In this document: in pieces, positions 10,180 through 53,762 of the stretch
How the letters are laid out: each line of letters starts with the position of its first letter
How positions within the stretch are numbered: position 1 is the first letter of the stretch
Assembly: GCA_040365065.1 (NCBI GenBank)
Contig: BAABNI010000004.1
Span: 80,854 to 144,853 of the forward strand
Source of the DNA: Candidatus Pelagadaptatus aseana
GTDB taxonomy: Bacteria; Pseudomonadota; Gammaproteobacteria; Pseudomonadales; Cellvibrionaceae
Direction of reading: 5' to 3'
DNA: 64,000 nucleotides
Notes under the pieces: generated by a model
What the model saw: the letters and a program-made list of their open reading frames with translations, nothing else
Databases searched by the model: none
Told to the model about the DNA's origin: nothing
Made by a program: the position numbers and the translations under genes

Positions 10180-10206
10180 CCCCGCACCAGCCAATCCCAA
10201 AAGTCG

Positions 10207-11808: not shown

Positions 11809-12019
11809 TGAGTGGACCTCCTGAAACTAAACATTCTCCCTGCCGTAGATGTCGGCCATTGGCTTTACTTCTTGAAGCCGACGGAAGAAAAACAACGACT
11901 GAGCAATATCAAACCTGCTAGAGCAATAAACACCCCTCACAGGCTGAGCAGCTGTATAAAATCTGATCCACATCAACAATTAATTTTACCCAATCCGGAA
12001 CAATAGACCTCGTTTCCAT

Positions 12020-12412: not shown

Positions 12413-12420
12413 AAGATTGT

Positions 12421-13194
12421 TCAGGCGCCACACACCTGACATTCCGGCCGCTTGCGCACGCCTATCTGCTTAAAATCCATTCTCAGAATATCCACCAGAC
12501 ATAATTTGTTGTGGCAGGGTTCACCAATACCTGCAAGCAACTTCAGGGCTTCTGCCGCCTGCAATGCTCCCACCACGCCGACGACTGGGCTGAACACACC
12601 TGCTTGTGAGCAGCTGAGTTGATCGCCACCGATCATATGACTGAAGCACTGGTAACAGGCACTGCCGTCTTGCATATCCAGCGTTATCAACTGTCCCTCA
12701 AAACGAATGGCCGCACCGGACACCAGCGGCGTAGAGCTTTGATAACAGAGACGATTTAACAGATTGCGGGTATCCAGATTGTCGCTGCAATCGAGCACCA
12801 CATCGGCACGCTTAATCAACTCAACATGGGATTCACTGAAAAACTCCGGCACCAAATCGAGATTCAGCTCCGGGTTCAAAGGCTTCAAACGCTGCGCTGC
12901 CGAAGCCACCTTTTCCTGCCCCAGACTGGTATCGGTGTGCAGCACCTGACGATGCAAGTTACTCAACTCGACCTGATCACCATCCACCAGAGTGATCTGG
13001 CCCACCCCGGCAGCCGCCAGATAAGGGGCTGCCCCGCATCCCAGACCGCCGGCCCCCACAACCAGTACCGAGGCGTGATGGATGCGAAGTTGCGCTGCTT
13101 CATCCATGTTCGGCAGCAACAGATGACGACTGAAACGCTGTAATTGATCGTCCGTTAAATGAGTCATAGAAGTTACCCGGTGCAAATTTACCAA
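12421..13194 (-). CDS. moeB: Molybdopterin-synthase adenylyltransferase MoeB (ThiF/HesA family)
   Basis: 257 aa. Motifs FSRHLLLPNM, the Rossmann-like VLVVGAGGLGCGAAPYL, and two CxxC pairs (ACYQC, CQVCG). Context among moa/moe genes. The start may be the ATG at 13167 (MTHLTDDQL). Confidence 0.8.
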   Translation of the reverse strand: MVNLHRVTSMTHLTDDQLQRFSRHLLLPNMDEAAQLRIHHASVLVVGAGGLGCGAAPYLAAAGVGQITLVDGDQVELSNLHRQVLHTDTSLGQEKVASAAQRLKPLNPELNLDLVPEFFSESHVELIKRADVVLDCSDNLDTRNLLNRLCYQSSTPLVSGAAIRFEGQLITLDMQDGSACYQCFSHMIGGDQLSCSQAGVFSPVVGVVGALQAAEALKLLAGIGEPCHNKLCLVDILRMDFKQIGVRKRPECQVCGA

Positions 13195-34312: not shown

Positions 34313-37300
34313 TTAATCTTTCTTACTGTAGAGTGCGTTCAACACTTCAAATTGTTGCGCAATGTAATCCCGGGTTGAGTTCAGCTGCGATACCAAGATG
34401 TCGTTAAAAGCAAACTGTCGGGCCAGCTGAGTCTGAAAGGCCTCAATCCGGTCATCCAGAGCCTGACGATCCTCATCCAGTTCAGCCAGCTCATCCTGCA
34501 GGCCGCTTTGCTTGATCCCCAGACCGCCGTCGCTATCAAGGAAATCCTTGAGGAAATCCTCCAGTTGCGCGGCAATCCCTCGACCAAACTCAATTTCGCC
34601 CCGGTTACCCAGATTGCCACCCAAAACATTGATGCGCAGATCTTCAACGGGAGTTCCGGTAGCACCAACCAAACGCTGGCCACTGCCCAACGCGGCATAG
34701 CCACCGATGGTACCAGCGACACTGGTACCAGACTCGAAAGTAAAATCATCGTCGGTGGTTTCTACAAGCCCCAAACTGCTACTGGCAAAGTTATTGGGGC
34801 TCTTCACATGAAAGCTTACGTCATTACCAAAATCAATTTTAAAGCTGCCACCCTCAGTAGAACCGTCATAGGTCACAGTGGCCAGAGTCAGATCTTCACC
34901 CCGGACCAAGCCGGCCTCAATGCCAAAACCGTCCAGTGCGCCACTGCCGTCAAAACCGGAACTGTAGACCGCATCACCGGCAAACAGGTTGAGCGGATCC
35001 ACCATATTTTTTACTTCCAGTGAGGCGCCGCTGCCCACTGTGTCGGAAGTAATGACACCATTTTTGCTGTTGCTCTGAAAGTAGAGATTGTTGGCTCCGT
35101 CCAGCTCAACGGTAATATCACCCGCGGCAAAATCACTGCTGGCATCCAGCGCGGCATCGATCTGCCCCTGAATGTAGGCCTGCACTTCCGATATGGTATC
35201 CCCTGCTGCGCCATCGGCGTCCAGAGTGATATCAAAGTCGGTACCGGCCATACTCAGAGTAAACGTCGACGTATTGGCTCCCGAAAAATCTTCGGTGCCG
35301 GTTAATGCGGTAGCCCCCAGCGCCGTTTTGGCGCCCGAACCATCGGCAACCACATTAAGCGTTTCAGTGGGTCCGGTAGCCACGGTTTTCAACACCAAAC
35401 CGGTACCGGAACGATCGGCCACCAGATTACCGGCAAGCCCCGGCGTGGCATCAATCTGATCCTGTACGCTTTGCAAAATATCGTCGATGGCATCGGTATT
35501 GCCATCACCATCGATATCGGAGGCCGCCGTCCCATTGGCGTCGATCACCAGATCATAGCGGGTCCCATTGTACTCAACACCAAAGGCGCGGGGGTTCGCA
35601 GTAAAATCAATGGCGCCAGCGGTGATATCCACCGTACCAGCTCCGGTTTCAGCGCCTTTTCTGGCCGCAATAAAGTTGCTATCAGTGGCAATGGCCGTTT
35701 GTAAAGCCAACGCAATATCACTGCCATCATTACTGTTGATAGCCACCGATAAGGTATCAGACGTTACCCCGTTGGCTTCAATGGTAAATTCTGCCGTATC
35801 GTTGAGAGTTGAGCTCAACGCATCCGTTACTGATAAGGCGGACAGCTCTGTAAATTCACCGGAACCAGCGGACAGGCCAATGCTGGAGGCCATGGAAGAT
35901 TCGGCGGCAGACACAATAAAACCCAACTGCCGACCATCGCCGTTTTTCTCAAAACTCATGGTCAGCTTGCCAGTTTCCAAATCGCCCTCAAAAGCGACAT
36001 TGGCGGTCAAACCTTCCGCTTTGAAATTCGAGTCATCGTTAATGGCAGCCTGAATAGCCTGCGCCAGATCATCGCCACTGGAGTAGCTGCCATTGGCAAT
36101 CTGGATACTGTTGGAGGTCACCCCATCCACACTCAGGGTAAAATCATCGTTGCCGCCGTTGATGGTCACCGCACTGGCAAAATCATCGGTGGTTTTTAAC
36201 AGCGAAACGGTATCGCCTGAATGGCCACCCTGCTGCGGTTCACGCAGCCCTAACGTTAACGCGGTAGTGGTATCGGTACTGACAAACCCCAAATTGGAAG
36301 AGGCACCGTAACTGCCGGAAGTCAGTTCAAACCGCTGTTCTGCAGCGTTGTAATTCACCTCTACCGATTTACCGGCATCCTGAATATTAACGTCGGTATT
36401 GATGGCACTCTGTATGGCTTCAGCCAACTCATCACCCGTGTAGGTACCGCGTGCCAGAGTAATCTGATCGGAGTATTGGCTGTCTACCTGAACTTTGAAA
36501 CCATCGTTGCCTGCATCAATAACAAAGGGCTCTCCGGAAGTCGACAGGCCAAGCAACTGAGCCTGTTCCGCCACACGGGAAATAACAATTTCGTAGTCAC
36601 CGGCCTGAGTATCATTGGAGCTGCTGACGTAATCAATCAGCGAGTCTGTCGCGGTGGCACCAATGCCAAACAGGGTACTGAGTGACTCGGCATCGGACTG
36701 CAGGGCTGACTGAAACGTGCCACTGTCGAATATCAAAAGGCCGGTTTCACCGTTGGTGGAAATCCCCACCTCGGACATGGTCCTGAAGTCGGTACCATTG
36801 AGTGAACTGACCGCAGACGTCAGAATATTTTGCGAAGAAGTAATCAAGCGACGAATGGTATTATCACCGGTAAAAATACTGCCCAAGCCGGTATCGGGGT
36901 CAAAGGCAGTTAACCCATTCACGGTGGTTTTGAGTTCATTGTAAGCGTCTACCATGGTCTGCATCCGCTCGGTTACTGCCGCAGTATCCCGCTCTACTGT
37001 CAGGGTAACAGGGCCAGCACTGTCCTGCTTGAGGTTGAGCGTCAGACCATTAATTACCCCGGCCACCAGATTCGATTCACGGGTAATATCCAGACCATTC
37101 ACTTTAAATTCGGCGTTCTTGGCATCCACCGTCTGTAACATGGTGGTTGAGTCGTCATCGAAAGACAGGCTGTCGAGACCATTGGATGGGTTGTTAACCG
37201 AGACCGTAAAACCGTTATTTTCACCGGTTTCTTCTGAGGTAAAGAGCAAACGATAGCCACTGCCGGTATCAACAATGGTGGCTTCGATTCCCATATCCGC

Positions 37301-37822
37301 GTTATTCACCGCATCGCGAATACCGGTAATGGTGTGGTTACTGGCGTCGATATTGAGCTTTCTGACAGCGGCCTCAGAATCGGCTGTAAACGAAAAGCTG
37401 GGTGTGCCGGAGTCGTAATCTACATCACCAAAGGTGAACACCAGCTCACCTTCTCCCAAAACGGCGTCGAGATCACCGTACTCGGCAGAGGCAATGGTTT
37501 GTGAACGAGCCAGCTGGCTGGTTTCAATGGTGTAAACGCCCGGGGAAGCCAGAGAACTGGCAGTTGCCGTTAAAGCTGAGTCATTGGTCGAGGAGGTGGT
37601 ATTGGTCTGAAAAGACGAAGTCAGGGTCAGGGCATTGGCGGCGGCACGCAGGGACTCTGCCTGACTGGCGACATTGCCCAGCTCAGACACCTGAGTATCG
37701 AGATTTTCCTGCTCGGCATTGATGCGCTTGTCGGCTGATTCACGCTCTACCGCGACCAGGTCATCAATCAATTCGGAGGTTAAAACCCCGGAACCGATAC
37801 CTACTGATGAAATTGAAGCCAT
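34313..37822 (-). CDS. fliD: Flagellar filament cap protein FliD, giant (1169 aa)
   Basis: The N-terminus MASISSVGIGSGVLTSELIDDLVAVERESADKRI and the C-terminus ...RIEAFQTQLARQFAFNDILVSQLNSTRDYIAQQF are canonical FliD coiled-coil ends. AEFKVNGLDITRESN is the FliD core. About 600 aa of extra repeat modules lie at residues ~430-1030. Confidence 0.9.
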   Translation of the reverse strand: MASISSVGIGSGVLTSELIDDLVAVERESADKRINAEQENLDTQVSELGNVASQAESLRAAANALTLTSSFQTNTTSSTNDSALTATASSLASPGVYTIETSQLARSQTIASAEYGDLDAVLGEGELVFTFGDVDYDSGTPSFSFTADSEAAVRKLNIDASNHTITGIRDAVNNADMGIEATIVDTGSGYRLLFTSEETGENNGFTVSVNNPSNGLDSLSFDDDSTTMLQTVDAKNAEFKVNGLDITRESNLVAGVINGLTLNLKQDSAGPVTLTVERDTAAVTERMQTMVDAYNELKTTVNGLTAFDPDTGLGSIFTGDNTIRRLITSSQNILTSAVSSLNGTDFRTMSEVGISTNGETGLLIFDSGTFQSALQSDAESLSTLFGIGATATDSLIDYVSSSNDTQAGDYEIVISRVAEQAQLLGLSTSGEPFVIDAGNDGFKVQVDSQYSDQITLARGTYTGDELAEAIQSAINTDVNIQDAGKSVEVNYNAAEQRFELTSGSYGASSNLGFVSTDTTTALTLGLREPQQGGHSGDTVSLLKTTDDFASAVTINGGNDDFTLSVDGVTSNSIQIANGSYSSGDDLAQAIQAAINDDSNFKAEGLTANVAFEGDLETGKLTMSFEKNGDGRQLGFIVSAAESSMASSIGLSAGSGEFTELSALSVTDALSSTLNDTAEFTIEANGVTSDTLSVAINSNDGSDIALALQTAIATDSNFIAARKGAETGAGTVDITAGAIDFTANPRAFGVEYNGTRYDLVIDANGTAASDIDGDGNTDAIDDILQSVQDQIDATPGLAGNLVADRSGTGLVLKTVATGPTETLNVVADGSGAKTALGATALTGTEDFSGANTSTFTLSMAGTDFDITLDADGAAGDTISEVQAYIQGQIDAALDASSDFAAGDITVELDGANNLYFQSNSKNGVITSDTVGSGASLEVKNMVDPLNLFAGDAVYSSGFDGSGALDGFGIEAGLVRGEDLTLATVTYDGSTEGGSFKIDFGNDVSFHVKSPNNFASSSLGLVETTDDDFTFESGTSVAGTIGGYAALGSGQRLVGATGTPVEDLRINVLGGNLGNRGEIEFGRGIAAQLEDFLKDFLDSDGGLGIKQSGLQDELAELDEDRQALDDRIEAFQTQLARQFAFNDILVSQLNSTRDYIAQQFEVLNALYSKKD

Positions 37823-37921: not shown

Positions 37922-39805
37922 TTAGCCCGATGTTTTCACGAAAAATTGATACATATTGGCGAAAACATCGGGATTTTTTTCCTCAAAATCCTGCCAATTA
38001 GCCAAGTTTCTAACTCCTTCCACCCCAAACTGGCTATAAAATTTTTCCCTATAGTTTGGATTCTCAAGTGTCATGCCCAAAAAATCCAATTGATACTTTT
38101 TAAGTAAAGCCTCAATTTGAGGGATGGTGTAGCGGTGTTCCTGTGCATGAAACAACAAATCCCGGCAAGGGCTGGTAGCGTAAAAGTCACCAAAGCCTGT
38201 AACCAGCCTGCAATCAGGTCGGGCCTCTTCAGACATCAAAGCCTTCCTGACGTTCCGGATATTTTCCAGATCCGGCGACATGCCACTGTTAATGTAGGCA
38301 TTCCTCACTGCCACAACACCTCGACGGGCCGTTTCACTGTAGAGCCCCAGCCGGATAGTCCCTCCAGGCCTGATTACCTCCAACAAAGCCTCCAGACCCG
38401 CCTCGGGATTTTCCATGTGATGCAAAACCCCGGCGCATTCAATGGCATCAAACTGCTTGCCAAGCAGGCCAACCTCCATCAAATCCATATGCAGCAGCTG
38501 AAGATTGTTTACTGAATACTCATCTGCCTTCATTTGAGCGTAAGCCAGACTCCTTCTGGAGATATCGATGGCTGTCACCTTGACATCGGTTTGCAGCGCG
38601 CACATCAGAGGATGCTTGCCGGTGCCACAACCGGCCACCAGAACCTCTTTAATCTTGCCAGAGCCTGCGACCCGCTCCTCCTCAGAGAGCACCTGCTCCA
38701 TTCGCATAATGTAATCAACCCGCCCATCCGGAACAGACAATTGACGCCAACGTGGATAGGGGTTTTCCTCATACTGCTCCCTCACCTTGAGAGAGATGGA
38801 ATCAGCAATACTGCCAACACTGGATAGGGATTTTAGACACGCCCGTTCTTTTTTCTCTTCAAGAATTGCCGTATAAAACATGCCATTCAGGCTCTCGGGC
38901 CACAAATCTTCGGTCAAGCTCGACAGGGTTTCGTAACTATCAAAATCCCTGACCGGCTTGTACATAGCAAGCAACAGCAGCAACCCCTCAACAACAATCG
39001 GCTTAAACCCTTGCTGTGCAACCTGTTCTTTCAGCAAGCCTTCCAGCTCAGCAATCAACTGAAGCTCATCAGACTCCACCACATGAACGTATTCGTTCCA
39101 CTTATTCTGCCAGGCAATGGCCTGAACCAGAGGCACATAATCATCGGGAAAATCCATCTTAACCAGAGCATCAAAAAACACCTTTCTGCGCACCGCCACC
39201 AACACAGGCTCCAGCTTGGCGCTGCGGCAGTAATCTTTCTCCAGAACTTTTATCAGCAACTGATCAGACGCCAGTTCAACAATATCCGGCTCATTTTGCC
39301 CGCCATATTTGAGAGCCAGAAGCTGGGTACCCAGCTTGTGAACCTTGCCAGCCAAAAGCTCGTCGTCCCAAAACGACAAAACATCTTTTTCCACCATGGG
39401 CGAATAATTCAAGCAGTTCATTCTGTCCAGACAGTGACGAACGATATTTCTGATTGAATCGGACATCCTCAGCGGTTCCGCTAATTCGTGAGACCGCACA
39501 TAAGCACTTGAAAGATCATTGTTTCGATGCGCCAGAATCACTTCGGCCATCAATACTTGCTGCCCTTCCAGGTCATTTGCGGCAAGGTTTCGGGTATCAC
39601 TCAGGACACGTTCAGCATCCACGAGCCTGCCAGCATTAATCAGGCACTCGAGATATTGAATCGCATACACAAAACCCAATTCACTCTCAGGCCAGCCCTG
39701 CTCAAGAATTTGAGCCGCCTGCAGCCATTCTCTGGCTTGCGCCTTTACCGTTGCCTGCTCAAGCAAAAGCGCCGACGAAGAGCTGTGCTGGGTTAAATTT
39801 GTCAT
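37922..39805 (-). CDS. TPR-like repeat protein fused to a class I SAM-dependent methyltransferase (paralog A)
   Basis: 627 aa. The helical-repeat N-terminal half is followed by ENPYPRW, motif I VLVAGCGTGKH, VTAIDIS and FDAIECAGVLHHM. The C-terminal ~270 aa align throughout with the ORF at 45532-47586. Confidence 0.75.
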   Translation of the reverse strand: MTNLTQHSSSSALLLEQATVKAQAREWLQAAQILEQGWPESELGFVYAIQYLECLINAGRLVDAERVLSDTRNLAANDLEGQQVLMAEVILAHRNNDLSSAYVRSHELAEPLRMSDSIRNIVRHCLDRMNCLNYSPMVEKDVLSFWDDELLAGKVHKLGTQLLALKYGGQNEPDIVELASDQLLIKVLEKDYCRSAKLEPVLVAVRRKVFFDALVKMDFPDDYVPLVQAIAWQNKWNEYVHVVESDELQLIAELEGLLKEQVAQQGFKPIVVEGLLLLLAMYKPVRDFDSYETLSSLTEDLWPESLNGMFYTAILEEKKERACLKSLSSVGSIADSISLKVREQYEENPYPRWRQLSVPDGRVDYIMRMEQVLSEEERVAGSGKIKEVLVAGCGTGKHPLMCALQTDVKVTAIDISRRSLAYAQMKADEYSVNNLQLLHMDLMEVGLLGKQFDAIECAGVLHHMENPEAGLEALLEVIRPGGTIRLGLYSETARRGVVAVRNAYINSGMSPDLENIRNVRKALMSEEARPDCRLVTGFGDFYATSPCRDLLFHAQEHRYTIPQIEALLKKYQLDFLGMTLENPNYREKFYSQFGVEGVRNLANWQDFEEKNPDVFANMYQFFVKTSG

Positions 39806-40472: not shown

Positions 40473-43400
40473 TTACTGCAGTAGTGACAGAGCCTGCTGA
40501 GGCAAGGCATTGGCCTGTGCCAGTACGGAGATACCAGCCTGCTGCAGCACCTGCGAACGGGACAGGGCAGCGGTTTCAGCCGCAAAGTCCGCATCCTGGA
40601 TTCGACTGTTTGCAGCAGTCAGGTTCTCAGAAGTGATCGCCAGGTTAGAGATGGTAGATTCAAAGCGGTTTTGAATCGCACCCAAGTTGGCTCGCTCACC
40701 GGAGATAGATTGCAGCGCGTTGTCGATTGCAGTCAGGGCTTCGTTAGCACCTTCGAGAGTGGAGATATCGATTTCATCGATAAAGATACCACGCTCGGTC
40801 GCACCGAAGGAGCCCTGAGCAAAGCTCAGACCAGCCAGTGCGGAAGCACCGTTACTACCCGCTTCTACTTCAATCTCACCAGAGCTGCTCAGCTGCACTG
40901 AAGAGTAGGTAGTAGCCGCAGTATTGGCGTAATTCAAAGAAGCATTATTGCTGATATCGGCTTCGTTGATGCCGTCCTGACCAGCACTCAGACCGATGGC
41001 ATTACCAAAGTTGGCCACACCTTCGTTGTCGATCGCTACAGAGATGTTACGACCATCTTCAGCAGTCAGGGTAATGCTCACACCGTTATCTTCAGCAGTT
41101 ACACCGGTTTGACCCGATACAGCGTTGATGGCATCGATGGCAGAACCACGGTCCTGATCGGCATCACCGGTCAGAACAACACCGTTGGTCTGTACACCGT
41201 TGATGTAAACGCTACCGGAAGAACCTGCGGCAGCCACTGCGCCTGTTCCGTCACCACCAGTTACCACAGTTTCGTTAACTGTAGCAGTCACACCAGTACT
41301 GTCGCTGGCACGGTTGATGGCCGCAGCAACTGCGATACCGGAGGCAGACGCGTCACTGGACTCGGCGGTGGTATCGGATGCTGTGTCATCAGATGCCAAA
41401 GAGGCACCAATGGCTGTTCCGTTAATAACCAGGTCACCATCATCCAGGCTATCCACAGTTACCGCACCGGCTTGGGCTTCACTGCCGTCTACCGCAGAAC
41501 CACTTACGGCGAAAGTACCGTCAGTCAGACGAATCTGGCTACCGGAACCAGTGGCTTCGTCAGTAAAGGTCAGGGTGCCATCGGCATTTGCCACAACGGT
41601 GGAGGCATCAAACGCTGCACCAATGGCTTGTACCTGATCTTCAATTTCAGCGGCCAGGTCGGCCAGAGTGTTATAGCTGCCATCAGAAATGGTGATGGTG
41701 TTCTCGGTAGTGCCACCGTCAGCAGAGTAGGTAAAGGTGTTATTACCTTGCGCTGCGCTGATCGACAGAGGATCGGCATTACCGTTGGAGTCAACAAAGG
41801 TACCTGCAGCCAGTGTTCCGCTGCCGTCAGCCACACTGAAGGCACCGGTTGTTGCAGTACCTGCAGTCGCAGCACCGTTAACACCAGCGGTTGAGGTCGC
41901 AGTCAGATCATCATCAGCCGCCACAATTTCATCAGCGGTAGCGGTAGACAACTCAACGGTACCACCGGAATTAGAGCTGATTACAACCTGATCACCAACA
42001 GCTGTGGCAGTAATGCCGGAACCAGCCAGAGAAGTATCCGCGGCGTACTGGATAACGGCGGCCAGTTCTGCAGCGTTAGTTGGTGGGTTGGCTGATGCAG
42101 GATAGCCACCATCGGCAACCGCGGCAGCAGAATCCAATTCCAGATCGGCTGCGCCAGCACCATCCACATCAATACCAATGGTATCGGCACCACCGGCACC
42201 GGCAGTCAGAGAGAAGCCAGACAGGAAGGCTGACACATCGGTAATAACGCTATCGCCGTTGGCCAGTTGCTGTACTGAATTACCCTGATTAGCTACCTCA
42301 ATGGTGTTGGCACCAGTTGAGGAGTCGGCCACCACTACGCTACTGGCAGCACCAGTGCTCTGGGAAGTCAGCAGCACATTCAGGCCATCTTCGGAGACCG
42401 AAGCTTCAACGGTACCCGCCAGACTGGTAGAACCAATCGCGGTATTCAAGGCCGCAGCAAAAGTAGCCGCATCGGTATAGGTCGCACCACCAATGGTGAT
42501 GTCCACCGCCGAATTACCATCAACAGCAATACTTAGCTCATCCAGGTTGTTACCGGTATCAGACACCAACGCGTTAACGCCGTCGAAGGTAAAATCAATG
42601 GTTGCAACACCGGCCGTACCGTTATCCGCCGCAGAACCACCATCGGTAGTCGTTACAGCAGTTGGGATGGCAATGTTACCGGAAGAACCGGTTCTTACAG
42701 ACACAGAAGACGCATCACCGGTAGTTGCCGAGGTGAAGGTCAAGCCACCGGAACCGTTATCGGAAGCAGTCACCAGACCGTTCAGAGCACTGCCGGAAAT
42801 GGCGTTATTCACCGCATCAGCCAATTGGGCCGCGTCGTCGTACTCACCCGCGCCGGAGCCGGCATCGTAGGTAGAGCTCAGCTGAACCTGAACAAAAGAA
42901 GCACCATCGACAGAAATTTCGAAGGTGTTATTGGTGGCATTCACCACGGTGTTGGCAGCAATATTCATGTCACCGGTAGTAAAAGTACCGGAAGTGGCGG
43001 CTGTCAGAGAGCCAGCTTCAACACTGCGCGCAGAACTGTTAACCAGGGCTTGACCGGCTTGGTAGTCGCCTACGGTCAGACCTGCGTTGGCAATATCATC
43101 ATTACCGGTTCCATCACCACCACTGACACTGATGGTACCTTCACCACTCAGAGTGAAACCACCGTAGCTGGTACCTTCAGACAGACCAGTAGCCGCTTCA
43201 AAATCTGCAGAAGTACCGGACAAACCGCTGAAGCTAACGTCGATATTACGACCATCAGCCGCCTTCAGAATCACACCGCTGGACTGACCACCATCTTCAG
43301 CGATCACACCGGTTTGATCCGACTTGGCATTAACCGCAGAGATAACCGCATTACGGTCATCGTCAGAACTTGCACCACCCGTGGAGATATTAATGTCTAC

Positions 43401-44177
43401 ACCGTTCAGGGTTACGGTACCGCTCTCTGCACCCGCTGTCATGGCAGAACCGGTAGCAACGGTTTCGTTTACCGTAGCAGTCACACCGGTTTCATCAGAA
43501 GAACGGTTGATCGCTGCCGCCTTGGCGATGGCAGAGGATGCCGCATCAACGGTAGAAGCGTTGTCATCCTGAGAGCTGGATGGGGTAATCGCCACACCAT
43601 TGATGATCAGGTCACCGTTGCTGATGGCAGAAGAAGTACCGATAGCACTTACGCCAGCAGTTTCAGAAGAACCGAGAGTGTCAGCGGTCATCTTGCCAAC
43701 GGCAACTTCAATGGTTTCACCGGAGTTAGCACCAATCTGGAATTGAGAGGTGAAAGAACCGTCCAGCAGGTTACGTCCGTTAAAGTTGGTCTGTTCAGCA
43801 GTACGGGTGATCTCGGAGATCAGCTGCTGGGCCTCAGCGTTCAGAGCCTCACGGTCGGAGTCACTGTTGGTGCCGTTAGCAGACTGCAGTGCCAGCTCAC
43901 GGATACGCTGCATGTTGTCAGTCATCGAACCCAGAGCACCCTCGGCGGTTTGCGCCAGAGAGATACCGTCACCGGCGTTACGAATAGCCACTGCCAGACC
44001 CTTGGTTTGAGATGTGAAACGAGTTGAAATCGCCAGACCCGCCGCATCGTCCTTCGCACTGTTAATACGCAGACCAGAGGACAAACGCTCCAGCGCTTGA
44101 GCTTGGTCAGACTGCGACGTATTCAAGTTACGTTGAGCCGTCAGCGAGCTGATATTAGTGTTAATAATCTGAGGCAT
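40473..44177 (-). CDS. fliC: Giant flagellin (1234 aa)
   Basis: From ATG 44177 (RBS AGGGAG): [51 protein letters not shown]... (flagellin N domain). The C-terminus is ...[72 protein letters not shown] (flagellin C domain). About 930 aa of Thr/Ser/Ala/Gly/Asp-rich repeat modules lie in between. Confidence 0.95.
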
Positions 44178-44255
44178 GATAAATGCTCCCTGTTGGTTTT
44201 TAGCGTCGGGCCCTGGCGAATGCACAGGACTCGTTTTTTCTGTTCTACAAACGGG

Positions 44256-45531: not shown

Positions 45532-47586
45532 ATGAATACTCAACACGCAGCAGCGTTAACATCAACTGAAACTCCTGTAACGCTGGGCAAGAAAGAACAA
45601 CTACAAATCGCGCAACTACTCAGCGACGCCATCAACCTGTATCAGGAAACCCGATCTGAAAAGTTGAGCGTATCGGAAGTAGCGGATCTGCAGGAACGCA
45701 GTATTGATTTAGCCGAAGAAGTATTCGCTCTCGACCCGACCAATATCGAAGCACTCAATGTTCTCGCCAGAGTCCGTCTGGACCAAAATCATCTGGTATT
45801 GGCGGAAACGATTGCTCAGGCCGCGCTTGCCATTGATAAAAACTCAGCCACATCCTGGTACAGCTATGGTCAGGTGCAACTTGCCATGGGTAATCTCAAC
45901 AACGCTGAGCAGGCATTTGTAAAATGCATCAGTCTTGATGCCACTTTCTTCAGGGCTCATACCTCCTATGCATTCACCAAACTGAATAAAGGCGAGATAG
46001 CCGCGGCTTTCCAGCACTACACCAAGCTGGCCAAAATCAAACCGGAAGATGATCACATCCGCTCCAAACTGTTTGAGTGCATGAAACAACTCAAAGCAGA
46101 TTACGACAACGAGCATTTAGGTAAAGCTCTGGTTGATTACCTGAACTGGAAAGACGTTAACTATCAGGACCTAAGTAATATCATCGAGTCTCTGTTAGTG
46201 CATCGCTACAAACTGGATTCCAGTGAAGCACAGGTGGACTTATCAAAGCTGTGTCAGGACAAACTTTACAACGAAGGTTTACGTAAACTCTTTTTCTGCA
46301 ACCCCAAAATTGAAGAGCTCAATCGTGATCTGCGTGGTTACTTCCTGACCCTCGATAATCAACTGGCTGGCCCGGACGAGATTCACTTGATGTCTTCTCT
46401 GGTTTATCAGCTCTATAACAATGAATACGTACTGAGTTATACCGAGAGTGAAGCAGCCCAACTGGAGATCATTTGCCAACAATTAAGCAAAGCCGATCTG
46501 GACAGCCTGCAACAGCAGCAGACAAATCTGCTGAAGGCCCTGCTCTACCGACCACTGAAGAGCACCTTGTCGCGGATGCAAATCATAGAACTGCTGTCAC
46601 GTAGGGATAAATGTTGGCAACCAGAAATATTCCAGCTAATCACCTGGCTCGACAAACAGGAAGACGGGGAGTCAACTGCAGGTATTCTGGTTCATGAAGA
46701 CATCACCAACCAGACGTCCAAAGCGGTAAAAGCCCAGTATGAAATCAACCCCTACCCTCGCTGGTTGAGCCTGGATTTTCTGACGCCCACCACTTACGGT
46801 GTGGCACTGGAAAAAGCTTTGCCTTTGCATAAGGCGGACAAACACTTTTTCTCCGATTCGCTGGATATCCTGATCGCTGGATGCGGCACAGGCCGCCACG
46901 CCATTCAGGTAGCCCGCTACTTCCGTGGCGTTAATGTCACCGCCATCGATGTCAGCATGCACAGTTTGTCCTATGCCAACACCATGGCAAAAAAATACAA
47001 GCTGGATAATATCGAGTTTATTCAGGCGGACATTCTCAATCTCGGCAACTTTGATAAGCGTTTCGATATCATCGAATGTTCCGGTGTATTACACCATATG
47101 GCGGACCCTCTCGAAGGCGCTCAAATATTAAAGAACCTGCTCAAGACACACGGCCTGTTAAAGGTTGGCCTGTACAGTGAGCGGGCACGCTCCGAAGTGG
47201 TTGGCTGCCGTAATTTGATCAGTGAGCTCTATCCGGAAACCAACAGCCGGGTCATCAGAGACTTTCGACGGGAGGTACTAAAGAATGCCAACGGCTTTCC
47301 GCAAATTGTACAATCAGCCGACTTCTACAGCATGAGCGGTTGTCGAGACCTGTTGTTCCATGTTCAGGAACACCGCTTTACCCCAACCTCGTTAAAGCAA
47401 CTTATTGATAATCTGGGGATGGAATTCCTTGGCTTTGTTCAGGTGCAGAGTGACTACCTGAAGGCCTACGATGAGCGCTTCCCTCTCGATCAGGCCCGTA
47501 CCGATTTGGCCAACTGGGAGCAGCTTGAGGATGATATTCCGCAAATTTTCTCTGCCATGTATCAGTTTTACTTGAAAAACCAATAA
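45532..47586 (+). CDS. TPR repeat protein fused to a class I SAM-dependent methyltransferase (paralog B)
   Basis: 684 aa. Clear TPR units (SWYSYGQVQLAMGNLNNAEQAFVKCISLDATFFRAHTSYAFTKLNKGEIAAAFQHYTKLAKIKP). Then INPYPRW, ILIAGCGTGRH, VTAIDVS and FDIIECSGVLHHM. Confidence 0.8.
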   Translation: MNTQHAAALTSTETPVTLGKKEQLQIAQLLSDAINLYQETRSEKLSVSEVADLQERSIDLAEEVFALDPTNIEALNVLARVRLDQNHLVLAETIAQAALAIDKNSATSWYSYGQVQLAMGNLNNAEQAFVKCISLDATFFRAHTSYAFTKLNKGEIAAAFQHYTKLAKIKPEDDHIRSKLFECMKQLKADYDNEHLGKALVDYLNWKDVNYQDLSNIIESLLVHRYKLDSSEAQVDLSKLCQDKLYNEGLRKLFFCNPKIEELNRDLRGYFLTLDNQLAGPDEIHLMSSLVYQLYNNEYVLSYTESEAAQLEIICQQLSKADLDSLQQQQTNLLKALLYRPLKSTLSRMQIIELLSRRDKCWQPEIFQLITWLDKQEDGESTAGILVHEDITNQTSKAVKAQYEINPYPRWLSLDFLTPTTYGVALEKALPLHKADKHFFSDSLDILIAGCGTGRHAIQVARYFRGVNVTAIDVSMHSLSYANTMAKKYKLDNIEFIQADILNLGNFDKRFDIIECSGVLHHMADPLEGAQILKNLLKTHGLLKVGLYSERARSEVVGCRNLISELYPETNSRVIRDFRREVLKNANGFPQIVQSADFYSMSGCRDLLFHVQEHRFTPTSLKQLIDNLGMEFLGFVQVQSDYLKAYDERFPLDQARTDLANWEQLEDDIPQIFSAMYQFYLKNQ

Positions 47587-47933: not shown

Positions 47934-49184
47934 TTACAGGCTATTAAACAACGACAACCCACTGATCCGGGCATAGCTTTGCTGTGCCGCTTCCAGCACA
48001 AAACTTTCAAAAGTCAGCTGACTGACCGCCTCGGCATAATCCAGATCACGCAACGTTGACAACAGTTCCGTGGTGACAATTTCCACTTCTTCATGAAGTG
48101 CCTGAGTCGAATCAATGGTATTGAGGCGTGCACCAATTTGAGAGCGCGTTTCCAATATCGACGTTTGAGCATGATCAAGATTGGCAATGGTGGTGCTGAT
48201 CAGGTTTTGATAGCTCTCCTGATCATCAGGTGACAGAGTCAGACTGCGCATGCCATCAAGAAAACGGTTAACCGTTGTCAGAATATCCTGAGTATCTTTG
48301 GACTCCACAAGATAGCTGTCTCCCGTAGCCGGGACACCAGACAATTTGATGCTGATACCATTAAACTGAATGTCACGACCGCTGGTGTAAGGGACATTGG
48401 ATTCTATTACGCGACCATCTGACTTCTGAATAATGTTGTAATTCAGCGACGGCGATTTGCCGAGCAGGGTCATATCATCCGGGTTTTGAAACTCGATAAT
48501 ATAATCTTCCGGATAAAACTGATTGAATTCTTCCTGGTCGTAAACGAATCCCGTAGAAATAGTCGCTGGTGGATTGCCTCGATTATTGGGATTATCAAAG
48601 GCCTGAAACGTTGGATCCGCACTGGAAACATTGACGAACACTTCCTTACCCGAATCGTTACTTGGAATGTATGTACTCGCAGCAACCTGTACAAATCGTT
48701 GTCCTTCATCACCCTGATAAGTGTAGTTGCCACTGCCGTTATCCAGAAAAGGAACCGTACTGCCCTTGAAACCGGAAAACAAATATTCGTTACTGGCATC
48801 TTTGGTATTCATCAAATCCGCCAGTTCAGTCATCCGGACTTCCACTTCAGCGGCAATAGCCCGACGATCATCGACGGTCAATGCACCATTATTCGCCTGA
48901 ATCGCCAGTTCGCGAATCCGGATAATGGTATCATTAGCACTGTCGAGGACACTTTCTTCCAGTTCCAACCGGCTATTGAGCAGGTTGATGTTGTCCATAT
49001 ATTGTTCACGAATATTGTTTTCCTGATTCAGTTTTTGAATCTGGCTGGATGCCACCGGATCATCCGAAGGCGTCAATATTCGGGTACCTCTGGAAATTTG
49101 TTCCTGGGTTTTATTAACCTGACCAGACAAGTCAATAATCTGCGAGGTACCAGTTACAAATGATTGCAAGGATGAAATACGCAT
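47934..49184 (-). CDS. flgL: Flagellar hook-associated protein 3, FlgL (normal-range size, 416 aa)
   Basis: N-terminus MRISSLQSF...ISRGTRILTPSDDPVASSQI. C-terminus DYAEAVSQLTFESFVLEAAQQSYARISGLSLFN. Immediately downstream of flgK. Confidence 0.9.
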   Translation of the reverse strand: MRISSLQSFVTGTSQIIDLSGQVNKTQEQISRGTRILTPSDDPVASSQIQKLNQENNIREQYMDNINLLNSRLELEESVLDSANDTIIRIRELAIQANNGALTVDDRRAIAAEVEVRMTELADLMNTKDASNEYLFSGFKGSTVPFLDNGSGNYTYQGDEGQRFVQVAASTYIPSNDSGKEVFVNVSSADPTFQAFDNPNNRGNPPATISTGFVYDQEEFNQFYPEDYIIEFQNPDDMTLLGKSPSLNYNIIQKSDGRVIESNVPYTSGRDIQFNGISIKLSGVPATGDSYLVESKDTQDILTTVNRFLDGMRSLTLSPDDQESYQNLISTTIANLDHAQTSILETRSQIGARLNTIDSTQALHEEVEIVTTELLSTLRDLDYAEAVSQLTFESFVLEAAQQSYARISGLSLFNSL

Positions 49185-49196
49185 AAAAATTTCTCC

Positions 49197-52100
49197 TTAG
49201 AATGCCGCCAACAGAGTATCGAACAGATCTCTGGCAACACTGATAATTCTTGATGAGGCGTTATACGCCAGCTCATAGCGAATCAAATTGGCCGCTTCTT
49301 CATCGAGGTTGACCCCGGCAATGGAATTTCTTAATGCATTGGACTGCTCGAGAATTTCACCCGCCGCTTCACGATTGATATTGGATTCCGCGGTAATGGT
49401 GCCAACAAATTCAACCAGATTACTGTAGGACTCCTGAAACGATGCATTACCCCCAATTAACTGCATCGATTCCACTTCAACAAACTTCAATGCATTGCGG
49501 TTATCACTGACACCATCTTCATTAAAATTGACAAAGAACTCATCCCCCACATCCGGATTACCACTGATATCAAAGGTGTAACCAAGATAATTGGAAACCG
49601 CCTCTGTTCCGGGGCGAAAAACATTGCCGGCATCGATGGCATCGGTGGTCATGGAAAAGTTTTCTTCCAGTGTCACATTGACTTCACCGGATATGGTTAC
49701 ACCATTGACCATGCCGAAATCTTCACCGCGAACCACACCTTGCAGCTCAGCCACCTGCATACCCAGTGGATCACTGCCCTGAATATTGTTTACCTGAATT
49801 TGGGCCCGTTCCATATTGACAGCATCGGGCCCGGTAATGGCAAAGCTGCCATTACCCAATCTAACCTGGCTGCCCAGCCCGCTATTGGAATCGGTAATCA
49901 ACAGAGACGAGCCTGACACCTCAACACTGACATCAGAGCCCGTGGCGCCATCGATTGCCGCTGCAAAACCAATCAGGTTGCTATAGGTTCCTGCCGGGAT
50001 CTGATAAGTGGTAAACGTAGTTCCGCCATCAACCGAAATTTCAAAACTGTCATTAACTCCGGTAACGACAGTCAAGGGCGCAGGATTACCATAGGCATCT
50101 TCAAAGTTACCAATATGATCAACATTGAAAGAACTGGTTGTAGCGGTGCCCGATGTTGCCGGCGGAAATGGTACAGAAGTAACCGGGCCAGAACTGCCCA
50201 TATTGGTATTGGCCGCAAGCGGTGTCGTACTGTCGGTAGTAATCAGTACGGATCCCAACGGATTTGACGAGGCAATGATAATTTGCCCACCATCTTCAAA
50301 AGCTGTAACGCCTGACCCAGCCGGTGACGCCGCAAAGCTGGCATTCAACAGGGATACCAGCTCAGCGGTATTGGTTGGTGGATTACCTGGGCCATTAACG
50401 TATCCCGGTGCATCAAAATCCAGTGGCAAAGGTAAGGTGCCGACACCATCTACATTGAGACCAATATTTTCATCATCGGCAATACCCAACCCGATAAAAC
50501 CAGCCGGATCGGTAATCACCGCGGTGCGCCCCAGATGAGTCACCAAATCATCCTGAGGATTGGCCTGAATGGGGTTGACAGCCCCCGGTCCAAATATCAG
50601 TGCTTCACCCAGATTGTCGGCCGTTACCAGCACACTGCGTCCATCATCACTGACGGTGGCAGTCGCATCGTAGGCAACCAGCGCAGTATTCAGTGCCGCG
50701 GCAAATAACGTTGGCGAGGCATAGCTGCCACTGGGAACGGTAATATCGGCGATTGGAGAAGCGTTAACACTGATGGCAAACGTGTTGGCACCCGGCGCAA
50801 CAACCAAAGGCAGCGCCCCATCAAATTCAAAGTCCACCTCGGCCTGATCAAATGACAGCGGACTGGGCGCCGTACCATCAGTGAAGCTGTAATTATTGGA
50901 AATACTCAAGCCGCCGGTACTGGAATCAGCCAAATAGGTGTAGTTGGTAATCTCCAACCGGCCCTCAGAGGAGACACTGGCAATGACTTTATCGGCACCA
51001 TAAAAGGCATCCAACTGACTTTGCACCACATCCACAATGTCCTGAGGATCGGTGTAGACACCACTGAGGTTAATGGTCACCGGATTATTGGCACCAAAAA
51101 CTCCGTCATTCAAATCAACGTCGAAGCTGTGAGGGCCGCCGACTGAAAAGTCAGCACCATTGGCAATATTGACACCGGCTGTAACCGAAGGAAATTGATA
51201 AGCGCCGTCAAGCCTCACAATATCACTGGGCTGAACCACACCTTGCAATGCGGCCGCTGACAACCCGAGGGGATCGCTACCGACCAGATTACCAATCTGC
51301 ATTTTTGCCAAGGGGCCATTATCATTATTGACAAACTGCAAGGTGCCATCATCGCGGAATTCAACACTCACTTTACCCGGCACATCAAAAGCGATATCGA
51401 TTTGATTTTCCAGATAACTGATCAATTCTTCCGGTGTTTGAAAAATTCCGGACAGCTCTATTGTCTTGGGGTTACTTAAACCATTTGGTCCATCAAATAA
51501 ATCGATATCAAAACTGCTGAAACCACCGGCACTGAGATCCACGCCACCGGTAACCACTCCCGTGGTCAGAAGGGTCGGTTTCTGATCGCCTTTTATTTCA
51601 ACAAAATCACCTTCCGCTCCCTGCATCTCAAACTTCAGATCCGCACCGGTAGACGCTTTGATTGTAATGCTGTCACCATTACTGACCGCAGTAATATTCT
51701 GCTGCTGAAGAGCCCCGCTGAAATTGATGGCATCGGCAATCATGTCGTTGGTAACCGGGGTTGGCACAGCACTTGGCGAAAACAGCAGTCCCAGCTCATT
51801 GCGCAAATTGACGCCATTCAGCAGTAAATTAAAATCCTGTAATTGGCCCGGTCCATTGTCGGATACCCTGATCTGGGTTTCCGTAGAAGCAATGGCCGTG
51901 ACGCCATCTCGCGACGATAACTGAAAGGCTATTTCTTCAGCAGAATCGCCGGCATTAACCACCACATTGGGCTGATCAACCCTAACGCCAGTAACAGGGT
52001 CGGTATAGGTGACGGTTATTTCTTCCGCTAAATAGGTATTGGGGATGCTGATCCCGGCTGTTCCGAACACCACCTCGGATTGGCTGGGAATACGATTGGC

Positions 52101-53762
52101 ATTAAAGCCATCGCTCACCATCACCGTCTGACCGGGTTCCGTTGGAAATATCTGATTGGTTTGCCCCGGAATAAAGGTTTGCCCCTCAAAAGGAGGCGTC
52201 AAACTTTTGGGGTTGTTGGGATCACTGACATCCAGCACATCATAGGTTGTTGGTGAAGTAAACTTCACCATAACCGGTGGATTCAGAGCACCATCAACCG
52301 AAAAAGCAGGTAAACGCTCTCCCGTTAAAGGGTCAATGGTTTGCAGCACATCACCTTGAGAAATCTTGCCGGTCCCGGTATTGGCCAGGTTGTTGACTGT
52401 GGATACCGGTGAAGCAAATGCCAGCACTTCAGGGGACGTTGCCACCACATCAACATTTTGTGAGGCAAAACGGGTGGGCATTATGCGGTAGCGATCACCG
52501 TCCTGAAACGAACCCTGTTCCAGAGTGATGGAAAACCCTTCGTACTCGATACTGGTAGGTCTTTGCGCCGACAGACCGCCAGATTGAACCAGCTCACCGT
52601 CGGAGTTCCTGACCAGCTCGTAACCGTCGGGACCGGAGCCGGTCAAACTGAGTGTATAATCGCTGTTGCCCAAGGCCGTCGCATCGGTAATCGCCACACT
52701 GACAACCCGATCCGGCGGATTGGCATTCAGACTGCTTGGGACGGCGCGATCCAATGTCGCCTGTCTTAAATTGATATCATCAAACAACGGCACACCGTAG
52801 TTGCCATTCAGATCCAACCCCACCGATTGTTGATAATTCATGGCTTCGGTAAAGGTCAAAGCGATTCGACCCAGTTCATTAAAGGATCGATCGAGCACTT
52901 CATTACGGTAGTTCAGCAGCCCACCAAGACGACCACCAGTTATGCTGTCTGTGACAATTTGACTGGAGCCATCATTCACAAACACCAGATCATAGCGGGT
53001 CGGATCGGTTTCACCATTCACCGCCTGCATTTCACTGGCGACCTGACCCACAACCAGTGGCTGGCCATTACCGATAAAGACATTCACCGCCCCATCGGCT
53101 TGCTCAAAGGTGGTTACTGATACCAACTCGGACAGCTGGCGCAAAGTTTCATCACGTTCATCCAGCAAATCATTGGGAGGATTACCCGCCCCCTGAGAAG
53201 TGGCATTGACAATCGCCTTATTCAGACCAGCCAGACCATTGGCCAGCGAGGTAACCATACTGGCGGTGGCTTTTAGCTCCTGATTAACAATATCATTGGT
53301 TTCATCAAAGCGACCGTACAAACTGGAAAAGCGCTGTGCCAAAACCTCGGACTGCGCCAACACCAACTGCCTGACGGGGATGGACGTCGGATCGTCCGTT
53401 GCGGCTTGCAAAGAACCAAAAAAGTTACTCAAACCATCCGATAAACCAATGGCTTCGTTGGACAACAGGTTATCGATTTCACCCACCTTTTGGGCAAATG
53501 CATCTAACTCGTTAAACGCGGTGGAATCAAGGCGTATTTGTGACGTGAGAAATTCATTGGCAATGCGTTCAATGGACTGAACATTAACCCCGGTGCCCAC
53601 ATAACCAGAACCGGAATAAATGGCCGGATTGGTACCCACATCAACACGCTGACGTGAATAACCTTCCTGATTGGCATTAGTGATGTTATGGCCGGTGGTA
53701 CTGATTTGCGCTTGGCTGGTTTTTAAACCGGATACCGCAATACCTAATAAGTCCGCACCCAT
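49197..53762 (-). CDS. flgK: Flagellar hook-associated protein 1, FlgK, giant (1521 aa)
   Basis: N-terminus MGADLLGIAVSGLKTSQAQISTTGHNITNANQEGYSRQRV. C-terminus GVNLDEEAANLIRYELAYNASSRIISVARDLFDTLL. Both are canonical FlgK ends. About 900 extra residues of repeat modules lie between ~440 and ~1345. Confidence 0.95.
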   Translation of the reverse strand: MGADLLGIAVSGLKTSQAQISTTGHNITNANQEGYSRQRVDVGTNPAIYSGSGYVGTGVNVQSIERIANEFLTSQIRLDSTAFNELDAFAQKVGEIDNLLSNEAIGLSDGLSNFFGSLQAATDDPTSIPVRQLVLAQSEVLAQRFSSLYGRFDETNDIVNQELKATASMVTSLANGLAGLNKAIVNATSQGAGNPPNDLLDERDETLRQLSELVSVTTFEQADGAVNVFIGNGQPLVVGQVASEMQAVNGETDPTRYDLVFVNDGSSQIVTDSITGGRLGGLLNYRNEVLDRSFNELGRIALTFTEAMNYQQSVGLDLNGNYGVPLFDDINLRQATLDRAVPSSLNANPPDRVVSVAITDATALGNSDYTLSLTGSGPDGYELVRNSDGELVQSGGLSAQRPTSIEYEGFSITLEQGSFQDGDRYRIMPTRFASQNVDVVATSPEVLAFASPVSTVNNLANTGTGKISQGDVLQTIDPLTGERLPAFSVDGALNPPVMVKFTSPTTYDVLDVSDPNNPKSLTPPFEGQTFIPGQTNQIFPTEPGQTVMVSDGFNANRIPSQSEVVFGTAGISIPNTYLAEEITVTYTDPVTGVRVDQPNVVVNAGDSAEEIAFQLSSRDGVTAIASTETQIRVSDNGPGQLQDFNLLLNGVNLRNELGLLFSPSAVPTPVTNDMIADAINFSGALQQQNITAVSNGDSITIKASTGADLKFEMQGAEGDFVEIKGDQKPTLLTTGVVTGGVDLSAGGFSSFDIDLFDGPNGLSNPKTIELSGIFQTPEELISYLENQIDIAFDVPGKVSVEFRDDGTLQFVNNDNGPLAKMQIGNLVGSDPLGLSAAALQGVVQPSDIVRLDGAYQFPSVTAGVNIANGADFSVGGPHSFDVDLNDGVFGANNPVTINLSGVYTDPQDIVDVVQSQLDAFYGADKVIASVSSEGRLEITNYTYLADSSTGGLSISNNYSFTDGTAPSPLSFDQAEVDFEFDGALPLVVAPGANTFAISVNASPIADITVPSGSYASPTLFAAALNTALVAYDATATVSDDGRSVLVTADNLGEALIFGPGAVNPIQANPQDDLVTHLGRTAVITDPAGFIGLGIADDENIGLNVDGVGTLPLPLDFDAPGYVNGPGNPPTNTAELVSLLNASFAASPAGSGVTAFEDGGQIIIASSNPLGSVLITTDSTTPLAANTNMGSSGPVTSVPFPPATSGTATTSSFNVDHIGNFEDAYGNPAPLTVVTGVNDSFEISVDGGTTFTTYQIPAGTYSNLIGFAAAIDGATGSDVSVEVSGSSLLITDSNSGLGSQVRLGNGSFAITGPDAVNMERAQIQVNNIQGSDPLGMQVAELQGVVRGEDFGMVNGVTISGEVNVTLEENFSMTTDAIDAGNVFRPGTEAVSNYLGYTFDISGNPDVGDEFFVNFNEDGVSDNRNALKFVEVESMQLIGGNASFQESYSNLVEFVGTITAESNINREAAGEILEQSNALRNSIAGVNLDEEAANLIRYELAYNASSRIISVARDLFDTLLAAF

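Follow-up and report, generated by a model that had tools for sequence, protein, structure and literature searches.

A domain cassette common to the giant flagellin and the giant hook–filament junction protein FlgK of Candidatus Pelagadaptatus aseana, probably copied from flagellin into FlgK

Candidatus Pelagadaptatus aseana is an uncultured member of the Cellvibrionaceae represented by a metagenome-assembled genome from coastal seawater of Singapore; the paper on this organism mentions the presence of flagellar genes and says nothing further about its flagella (PMC11985809). The exact sequence of the window is also found on contig BAABNJ010000003.1 of assembly GCA_040362265.1. A 64,000-nucleotide stretch of its contig BAABNI010000004.1 (positions 80,854 to 144,853, hereafter the window) carries the genes of a giant flagellin, FliC, and of a giant hook–filament junction protein, FlgK. 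A first-pass annotation of the window had noticed that two consecutive blocks of sequence align between the outer regions of these two proteins, and had proposed that a two-module cassette of ~230 amino acids (aa) was copied between them. Is this similarity real, how far does it extend, and which of the two proteins was the donor? As is argued below, the insert of a giant flagellin was probably copied once into FlgK, where it came to lie nested in the hairpin of one of FlgK's own outer units, and most of the first of its four modules was later lost in Pelagadaptatus.

The fliC gene occupies positions 40473..44177 of the minus strand and codes for a 1234-aa bacterial flagellin, with matches to the Pfam models Flagellin_N (149.7 bits, E 7e-44) and Flagellin_C (91.4 bits, E 4.8e-26), each above the cut-off. 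The longest fliC open reading frame (ORF) begins with a GTG codon at 44225; the NCBI record calls the 1234-aa product, whose Met codon is at 44177, and residues are numbered from this Met here. The flgK gene (49197..53762, minus strand) codes for a 1521-aa hook–filament junction protein (hook-associated protein 1), which was identified by matches to FlgK_D1 (250.2 bits, E 2.6e-74), Flg_bbr_C (28.5 bits) and TIGR02492 (319.6 bits, with a cut-off of 170.75), as well as by the presence of the gene order flgJ-flgK-flgL.

A BLASTP comparison with compositional adjustment aligned FliC residues 443-902 with FlgK residues 900-1321 in a single collinear high-scoring segment pair (160/466 identical residues, 34%, E 2e-39). 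The core of this alignment, FliC 499-902 versus FlgK 944-1317, is 38.9% identical over 360 pairs and has a Smith-Waterman score of 447, compared with 87 +/- 13 for global shuffles and 89 +/- 12 for local shuffles within 20-aa windows, which corresponds to z values of 27-29 (28.8 with the local shuffles). The reversed sequence scores 82, i.e., at the background level. Thus, the two blocks seen in the first-pass annotation do align in the same order in both proteins, and the alignment holds after correction for low complexity. The FlgK coordinates of the blocks (50229-50471 and 49818-50153) and their peptides had been given correctly; the FliC residue numbers had been counted from the GTG at 44225 and were therefore 16 too high, window positions 41490-42185 of the minus strand corresponding to residues 665-896. 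A nucleotide-level similarity that had been pointed out around the NPPTN motif amounts to 20 matches out of 27, no more than the eight identical residues out of nine imply.

The region common to the two proteins is built of modules that occur throughout the giant axial proteins of the window. With a hidden Markov model (HMM) that was seeded from seven repeats and iterated on five axial proteins, ~20 copies of a ~78-85-aa module were detected: four in FliC (residues 411-495, 538-617, 660-745 and 807-885, referred to as modules a to d), four and a divergent NPPTN unit in FlgK, six in FliD, and five or six in FlgE. It is to these copies of one module family that FliD, FliC, FlgK and FlgE (1169, 1234, 1521 and 1330 aa, respectively) owe their giant size. 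Since the family is present in all four proteins, some of the resemblance between FliC and FlgK is family-level and does not come from transfer. In an all-against-all Smith-Waterman comparison, most modules group by host protein (z of 19.3 for FlgK a-b, 9-17 for FliD 2-3-4 and 13.6 for FlgE 3-5), and outside the FliC/FlgK cassette this host-wise grouping points to separate tandem expansions.

The first-pass annotation had asked whether modules group by position or by host protein, and three FliC/FlgK pairs were found to match by position, not by host. FliC module b (532-622) pairs with the third FlgK unit (FlgK_c, 982-1060; z 12.7), FliC module c with FlgK_d, which together make up the NPPTN-containing first block of the annotation (z 21.0), and FliC module d with FlgK_e, the second block (z 17.2). 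These are reciprocal best partners among the 20 modules and follow the same order in both proteins; the NPPTN module has a z of 21 with its partner and of at most 4.1 with every other module. The three inter-module linkers are also alike between FliC and FlgK (z 4.8, 3.0 and 7.0), and conserved motifs of the cassette can be seen in an alignment of 15 sequences. In the first ~60 columns of the BLAST alignment, FliC module a is paired with FlgK's own module b at a z of 1.2, and here the resemblance is at the family level only. The block common to FliC and FlgK is therefore made up of three ~85-aa modules plus linkers, ~375-400 aa in all, a little less than the BLAST alignment spans. The idea of a cassette shared by descent has thus been borne out, while its size had been underestimated, the cassette having three modules in the window FlgK and four in the sister lineage described below (P0035 and P0036).

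In FliC, the cassette belongs to a central insert that separates two copies of a duplicated domain extension (DE). According to phmmer envelopes and a self-match, the first copy, DE1, spans residues 180-334 (43176..43640, minus strand, as are all FliC and FlgK segments given here); the second copy, DE2, spans residues 906-1065 (40983..41462) and holds the only, weak, Flagellin_IN match of FliC. FliC 185-299 and 911-1034 are 54% identical (E 2.9e-26). The four-module insert between DE1 and DE2 (residues 405-906, 41460..42965) contains divergent modules a to d with linkers and corresponds, by position and homology, to the "DX insert" of giant flagellins. The part of it that is common to FlgK (residues 499-902, 41472..42683) starts with the tail of module a and continues through modules b, c (with NPPTN) and d and the linkers between them.

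In FlgK, the cassette interrupts one of the protein's own units. FlgK unit a (residues 738-850, 51213..51551), composed of FlgK's own module and a "GSDPLG...LQGVV" tail, is present in all FlgK relatives examined. Unit b is a tandem duplicate of unit a (the z of 19.3 given above) that is split in two: its N-terminal part (residues 866-943, 50934..51167) ends with ...RLEITNYTY, and its C-terminal part (residues 1318-1348, ERAQIQVNNIQGSDPLGMQVAELQGVV, 49719..49811) has been pushed downstream by the nested insertion. As can be seen from the alignment of FlgK 819-874 with 1320-1371 (37.5% identity, E 1.9e-7), the last strand of unit b and the "GSDPLG...LQGVV" tail reappear after the cassette. Between the two parts lies the cassette of probable flagellin origin (residues 944-1317, 49812..50933), which consists of a remnant of the tail of module a' followed by modules b' (982-1060), c' (1092-1180, with NPPTN) and d' (1226-1312) and linkers, where primes denote the FlgK counterparts of the FliC modules. 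One junction follows the ...(F/I)TN strand of unit b and the other precedes its ...IQV.N..GSD.L strand, so that the cassette lies between the last two strands of this unit.

It is established that axial flagellar proteins fold as out-and-back hairpins, with both termini in the core and the midpoint of the sequence outermost (PMC6248924); an in-frame insertion into a distal hairpin would therefore add mass on the outside without disturbing assembly, and the site of the cassette in FlgK is of just this kind. Since the cassette sits within the outermost insert of FlgK and, in FliC, is flanked by DE1 and DE2, the suggestion of the first-pass annotation that the junction and the filament display homologous domains on their surfaces appears reasonable from the topology.

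The distribution of the cassette among relatives was then considered (P numbers below denote FlgK homologues and search matches, and L numbers denote loci). Among the 120 FlgK homologues listed, only P0001, P0034, P0035 and P0036 are longer than 1200 aa. The P0034 FlgK (1522 aa) is 87% identical to the window FlgK and has the same architecture. The FlgKs of P0035 and P0036 (1645-1646 aa) contain a cassette whose whole length can be aligned with flagellin modules a-b-c-d, and the alignment places its two junctions at the same sites as in the window FlgK. In Pelagadaptatus FlgK most of module a' is absent and a remnant of its tail is left (GGLSISNNYSFTDG versus SGTFVIPTANVSIDG); this absence accounts for the 124-125-aa length gap between the window FlgK and those of P0035 and P0036. 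By the cassette profile or direct reading, the cassette is absent from the five next-closest FlgKs retrieved, which include those of P0037 (1032 aa), P0040 from Maricurvus nonylphenolicus (1030 aa), P0041 (1146 aa) and P0068 from Thalassolituus marinus (993 aa). The living FlgKs thus form a stepwise series: Maricurvus has unit a alone, P0041 has unit a and an intact unit b, P0035 and P0036 have unit a and a unit b split by a four-module block, and the window FlgK has the same split. A tree built from the FlgK core (910 aa) unites the four FlgKs that have the cassette in one clade (bootstrap 73), and P0037 is the sister of this clade.

The insert is more widespread in flagellins. A four-module insert between DE1 and DE2 is present in the FliCs of Maricurvus (1347 aa), of the P0035 genome (L008, 1382 aa), of the P0034 genome (L011, 1340 aa) and of Thalassolituus marinus (1255 aa). 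Maricurvus and Thalassolituus therefore have the insert in FliC and none in FlgK, and Thalassolituus belongs to a different order, Oceanospirillales. When 1.84 billion cluster representatives were searched exhaustively with a profile, 33 proteins were retrieved; a collinear cassette was found in one FlgK cluster, that of the window FlgK, versus at least eight flagellin clusters. Behind this FlgK, the eight full-length proteins that matched the profile best were giant flagellins with the DE1-insert-DE2 arrangement. A scan of genome contigs with FlgL returned three distant loci only (41-44% identity), and the Cellvibrio loci have an ordinary FlgK of 921-931 aa.

Module d of several flagellins is in turn interrupted by a further module of ~100-130 aa, which separates the helix of module d from the last strands; this was seen in Maricurvus FliC (L006 17953-21996) and in P0002, P0005, P0007 and P0010, and is a case of recursive domain-in-domain growth.

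No DNA similarity between fliC and flgK was detected by blastn, and where residues are identical across the cassette, the same codon is used in 42% of cases, versus 37% expected from codon usage. The saturation of synonymous sites, together with the lack of similarity in the DNA, shows that the event that joined the histories of FliC and FlgK is old and not part of an ongoing exchange.

Comparison of the FlgK cassette with its P0034 orthologue gave a ratio of nonsynonymous to synonymous substitution rates (dN/dS, Nei-Gojobori method) of 0.062, and the FlgK core gave 0.03-0.04; the estimates are approximate, dS being saturated at ~1.6. Thus, the cassette is a constrained part of FlgK that is under purifying selection and is not decaying baggage. 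The FlgKs of the window and of the P0034 genome are 87-90% identical and their cassettes 84% identical, while the two FliCs are only 49.6% identical overall. The FliC of the P0034 genome (L011 19525-23547) has nearly identical D0 and D1 domains and a central insert of a different type, with an extra module nested in module d, a pattern suggestive of allelic replacement in the variable region of flagellin. Replacement in flagellin variable regions is well known. It follows that the flagellin insert is swapped quickly between close relatives, and the FlgK copy is inherited vertically.

We propose the following scenario, which we consider probable. An in-frame copy of the central insert of a giant flagellin, modules a-b-c-d with their linkers, would have entered flgK in the ancestor that Ca. 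Pelagadaptatus shares with the P0035/P0036 lineage (Cellvibrionaceae). Its point of entry would have been the hairpin that connects the last two strands of the outermost FlgK module, that of unit b. Such a domain within a domain would leave the assembly core of FlgK untouched and place the added domains on the outer side of the junction. The line leading to Pelagadaptatus would later have deleted ~125 aa, i.e., most of module a', so that b'-c'-d' were left. Thereafter the FlgK copy would have passed vertically under purifying selection, and the flagellin insert would have turned over fast, apparently by replacement of the central region; with one copy constrained and the other turned over, the two are now ~39% identical and show no DNA similarity. 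The transfer itself plausibly occurred by illegitimate or homeologous recombination between the two genes, which are encoded on the same strand at a distance of ~5 kb, although any trace of it in the DNA of the junctions would have been erased by age. The homology and collinearity, the site of insertion, the set of lineages with the cassette and its selective constraint are shown by the data; the single event, the function discussed below and the direction from flagellin to FlgK are inferred, the last from the fact that FlgKs outside one clade have no cassette, while their flagellins and those of another order carry it.

Several observations weigh against parts of this scenario. The support for the clade of cassette-bearing FlgK cores (bootstrap 73) is moderate. 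In a neighbour-joining tree of the cassettes (316 columns), deep bootstraps are 25-66, and the FlgK cassettes do not form one group nested inside the flagellins. Identity between the two FlgK cassette lineages is 37-41%, versus 42-47% with Maricurvus FliC. As to function, the FlgL of the window (416 aa) is of ordinary size and lies between FlgK and the filament, and the close relatives described above keep the FlgK cassette with a very different FliC insert.

The tree that fails to unite the FlgK cassettes, together with their greater identity to Maricurvus FliC than to each other, would be accounted for if Pelagadaptatus and the P0035/P0036 lineage had acquired the cassette independently, or if one copy had later been converted by a different flagellin allele, and central regions of flagellins have clearly been replaced between close relatives. 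We nevertheless consider either course unlikely. Both junctions of the insertion are identical in the two FlgK lineages, and the FlgK cores are monophyletic. The Pelagadaptatus cassette is about equally distant from all the others (32-44% identity), as expected of a long branch, and its remnant of the module a' tail fits a deletion from a four-module state.

Could the cassette instead have arisen in FlgK and then been copied to flagellin? The unresolved cassette tree would allow this, as rooting alone does not forbid it, and FlgK has modules of the same family of its own in units a and b. These native units are not the closest relatives of any cassette module, however, and the cassette-bearing FlgKs are a single shallow clade, while the insert is present in Thalassolituus, in Maricurvus and in at least eight flagellin clusters, and the partner FlgKs examined are without it. 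The opposite direction thus appears highly improbable.

An explanation without any transfer, in which FliC and FlgK expanded independently in tandem from a shared ancestral module and resemble each other only as family members, is suggested by the presence of ~20 modules of one family in FliD, FliC, FlgK and FlgE, many of which group by host. It does not accommodate three collinear reciprocal-best pairs that include the aberrant NPPTN module and the non-module linkers, or outgroup FlgKs without the whole block; position-specific pairing and the pattern of presence and absence effectively refute it, and we give it very little credence. Lastly, the composition of these T/S/A/G-rich, low-complexity outer domains is strongly biased, and word-based searches with the cassette and the 20-module profile returned nothing, not even the source protein, apparently because they were swamped by this bias, yet a compositional artefact has a negligible chance of being the explanation, being refuted by the composition-based E value, the window shuffles, the background score of the reversed sequence and the motifs conserved across 15 sequences.

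What a transfer of the flagellin insert into FlgK might have been good for can be asked from the composition of the whole flagellum. The cassette would clothe the 11-subunit FlgK layer in the same type of module by which the hook (FlgE), the filament and the cap (FliD) are thickened. All external parts of the flagellum would then be covered by an unbroken layer of protein, which would have a mechanical or protective role. The ordinary FlgL between FlgK and the filament does not fit this picture easily, and a conserved FlgK cassette beside a swapped FliC insert argues against a specific matching of FlgK and FliC lattices. A bolder version, which we regard as doubtful, is that in this group of marine gammaproteobacteria hook, junction, filament and cap are clad in a continuous layer of one promiscuous module family as a protein analogue of a flagellar sheath, that FlgK captured the insert to close a gap at the junction, and that the family is a general "cladding" domain of helical tubular polymers, phage tail sheaths included.

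The fold of the module was predicted with AlphaFold2. The modules are of a beta-alpha-beta type, for each of which at least beta-beta-alpha-beta-beta(-beta) is predicted. The 20-module alignment yielded a beta-beta-beta-alpha-beta-beta-beta unit with a predicted local distance difference test (pLDDT) score of 79, and a model of FlgK 725-1393 (669 aa) contains five such units with one long helix each and pLDDT of 70-90 in module cores. The predicted template modelling (TM) score of the 669-aa model is 0.31, so that interdomain packing is unreliable and no claim about packing is based on it. No Pfam, PHROG or NCBIfam model covers the module: a scan of the 20 modules gave single marginal matches to DUF3383, Flagellin_IN and phrog_19400. 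A Foldseek search with a single module ranked FliD of H. pylori, E. coli and Salmonella at the top, without significance (best E 0.45, TM 0.45-0.50). The five-module model matched H. pylori FliD (6iwy; E 6.8e-6, probability 0.99), but the global TM is low and the model's own predicted TM score is 0.31; its next neighbours were the Campylobacter junction-cap complex, outer domains of C. jejuni and P. aeruginosa flagellins, Vibrio flagellins, enterobacterial FliD D2-D3 and some phage sheath and baseplate proteins. A profile search of PDB sequences gave marginal matches to Vibrio flagellins and FliD (E 0.02-0.06). FliD D2/D3 and flagellin outer domains (6iwy, 5h5v, 5h5t, 6x80, 8erm and 9n8h) thus appear to be the closest structural neighbours of the predicted modules; no significant sequence relationship to FliD D2/D3 or to the outer domains of epsilonproteobacterial, Pseudomonas and Vibrio flagellins was found, and any relatedness is at most remote. 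Flagellin_IN (PF07196), a short motif common to flagellins and hook-associated proteins, looks similar by eye to the module pattern ..laaaIn.ai....vtA....g.l.ltS...G. Membership of the module in this family was rejected: one of the 20 modules matches (E 0.34), and hhalign against the DE region gave a probability of 5.4%.

The module family extends beyond the proteins discussed so far. It was found in Firmicute-type flagellins (P0011, P0012 and P0021), FlgL-like proteins, other FlgKs (P0017 and P0027) and a FliD (P0031), and, outside flagella, in a phage tail sheath protein (P0032, phrog_23) and a protein with a Laminin_G_3 lectin domain (P0025). P0009, a 2684-aa protein, has at least nine modules along with virion-structural-protein regions; P0013 and P0018 are also among the proteins of the representative search that were listed for occurrence of the module outside flagella. 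The module behaves as a promiscuous decoration unit of helical polymers, and phrog_19400 and part of Pfam DUF3383 may contain it. Both FlgE (1210 aa) and FliD (1315 aa) of Thalassolituus marinus contain the family. Large FlgEs were also seen in Maricurvus (1193 aa), L008 (1326 aa) and L011 (1331 aa). Giant hook and cap proteins thus accompany giant flagellins in other genera; the literature on giant flagellins consulted here discusses flagellin only.

All four giant proteins are encoded in a flagellar gene cluster at 34-63 kb of the window, nearly all of it on the minus strand, in the order fliD, a gene for an S-adenosylmethionine (SAM)-dependent methyltransferase, flaG, fliC, fliS, a gene for a methyltransferase with tetratricopeptide repeats (TPR), flgL, flgK, flgJ, flgI, flgH, flgG, flgF and flgE, with identities confirmed by Pfam and NCBIfam. 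The fliD gene is at 34313-37822, flgL at 47934-49184 and flgE at 58701-62693, all on the minus strand. The two large SAM-dependent methyltransferase genes that flank fliC, one at 37922-39805 (minus strand, 627 aa) and one at 45532-47586 (plus strand, 684 aa, with N-terminal TPR), are arranged in the same way in Maricurvus, L008, L010 and L011, and their products are candidates for modification of flagellin or a glycan. Antisense to fliC, the plus strand contains ORFs at 41109-41894 (261 aa) and 42825-44027 (400 aa), which were judged to be most likely shadow ORFs that result from the biased codon content of the Ala/Gly/Thr-rich fliC.

At the corresponding loci of relatives, additional genes were found. 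In L010, the genome of P0037, whose FlgK is the closest one without the cassette, a nonulosonic-acid biosynthesis cluster (epimerase/dehydratase, DegT aminotransferase, CTP transferase and NeuB; 8533-12462) follows fliS where others have fliC, and fliC lies beyond the flank retrieved; the cluster points to glycosylation of flagellin in this lineage. Thalassolituus marinus has a HepT/MNT-type toxin-antitoxin pair (HepT-like protein and nucleotidyltransferase) between flgL and fliC (L012 14268-15072), and a gene for a HigB-like toxin is located just after flaG in L011.

The DE1-DX-DE2 architecture of giant flagellins was described in marine gammaproteobacteria by Thomson et al. 2018 (PMC6248924), who listed Oleibacter, Thalassolituus, Oleispira and Gynuella as genera with DX and reported that DX lacks internal repeats, is without homologues other than in flagellins and was "probably generated de novo". 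Like their giant flagellins, the window FliC is longer than 1000 aa and has conserved D0/D1 domains, duplicated DE regions (54% identity) and a large insert between them; it also shares with DX-bearing flagellins a Gly-rich stretch after DE1 (...GGDGTGN, residues ~330-372). Its insert (residues 405-906) and the inter-DE region of Thalassolituus marinus are 41% identical over 536 columns (E 1e-68). Unlike DX as described, the window insert consists of four divergent modules of a family that is also present in FliD, FlgE and FlgK, and has a copy inside FlgK; the host belongs to Cellvibrionales and not to Oceanospirillales. Judging by this comparison, which was made via Thalassolituus, DX is very probably the four-module cassette, derived from a family common to other axial proteins.

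From fold similarity, it has been proposed that outer domains were gradually added from pre-existing domains of flagellar genes by recombination, including duplicates nested in loops (PMC11532411, Nat Commun 2024). The FliC/FlgK cassette follows this logic, and insertions nested in loops occur here as well. What differs is that the evidence is at the level of sequence (39% identity) and concerns a cassette of three to four domains with linkers, that the flow appears to be the reverse, with flagellin as the donor and FlgK as the recipient, and that presence and absence in relatives bracket the event. In the open-access literature we found no description of a flagellin-derived cassette in FlgK, or of giant FlgK, FlgE or FliD proteins that share modules with giant flagellins. 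Since the general principle had already been proposed from fold comparison, the FliC/FlgK cassette adds an unusually clear example of it without introducing a new concept.

These results bear on the question of how flagellar outer domains arise, the largest of which, those of giant flagellins, had been suggested to originate de novo. At the sequence level, the giant-flagellin insert is seen to be made up of modules from a family that also occurs in the cap, hook and junction proteins. Three to four domains have probably moved as one block from one axial protein into another, and the insertion site, polarity and later deletion can be read from living relatives. The two copies contrast in their mode of evolution, the flagellin copy being swapped rapidly and the FlgK copy being kept vertically under constraint. 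A structural prediction follows: the hook–filament junction would be thickened and clad in modules in cassette-bearing species, and would not be in Maricurvus or Thalassolituus.

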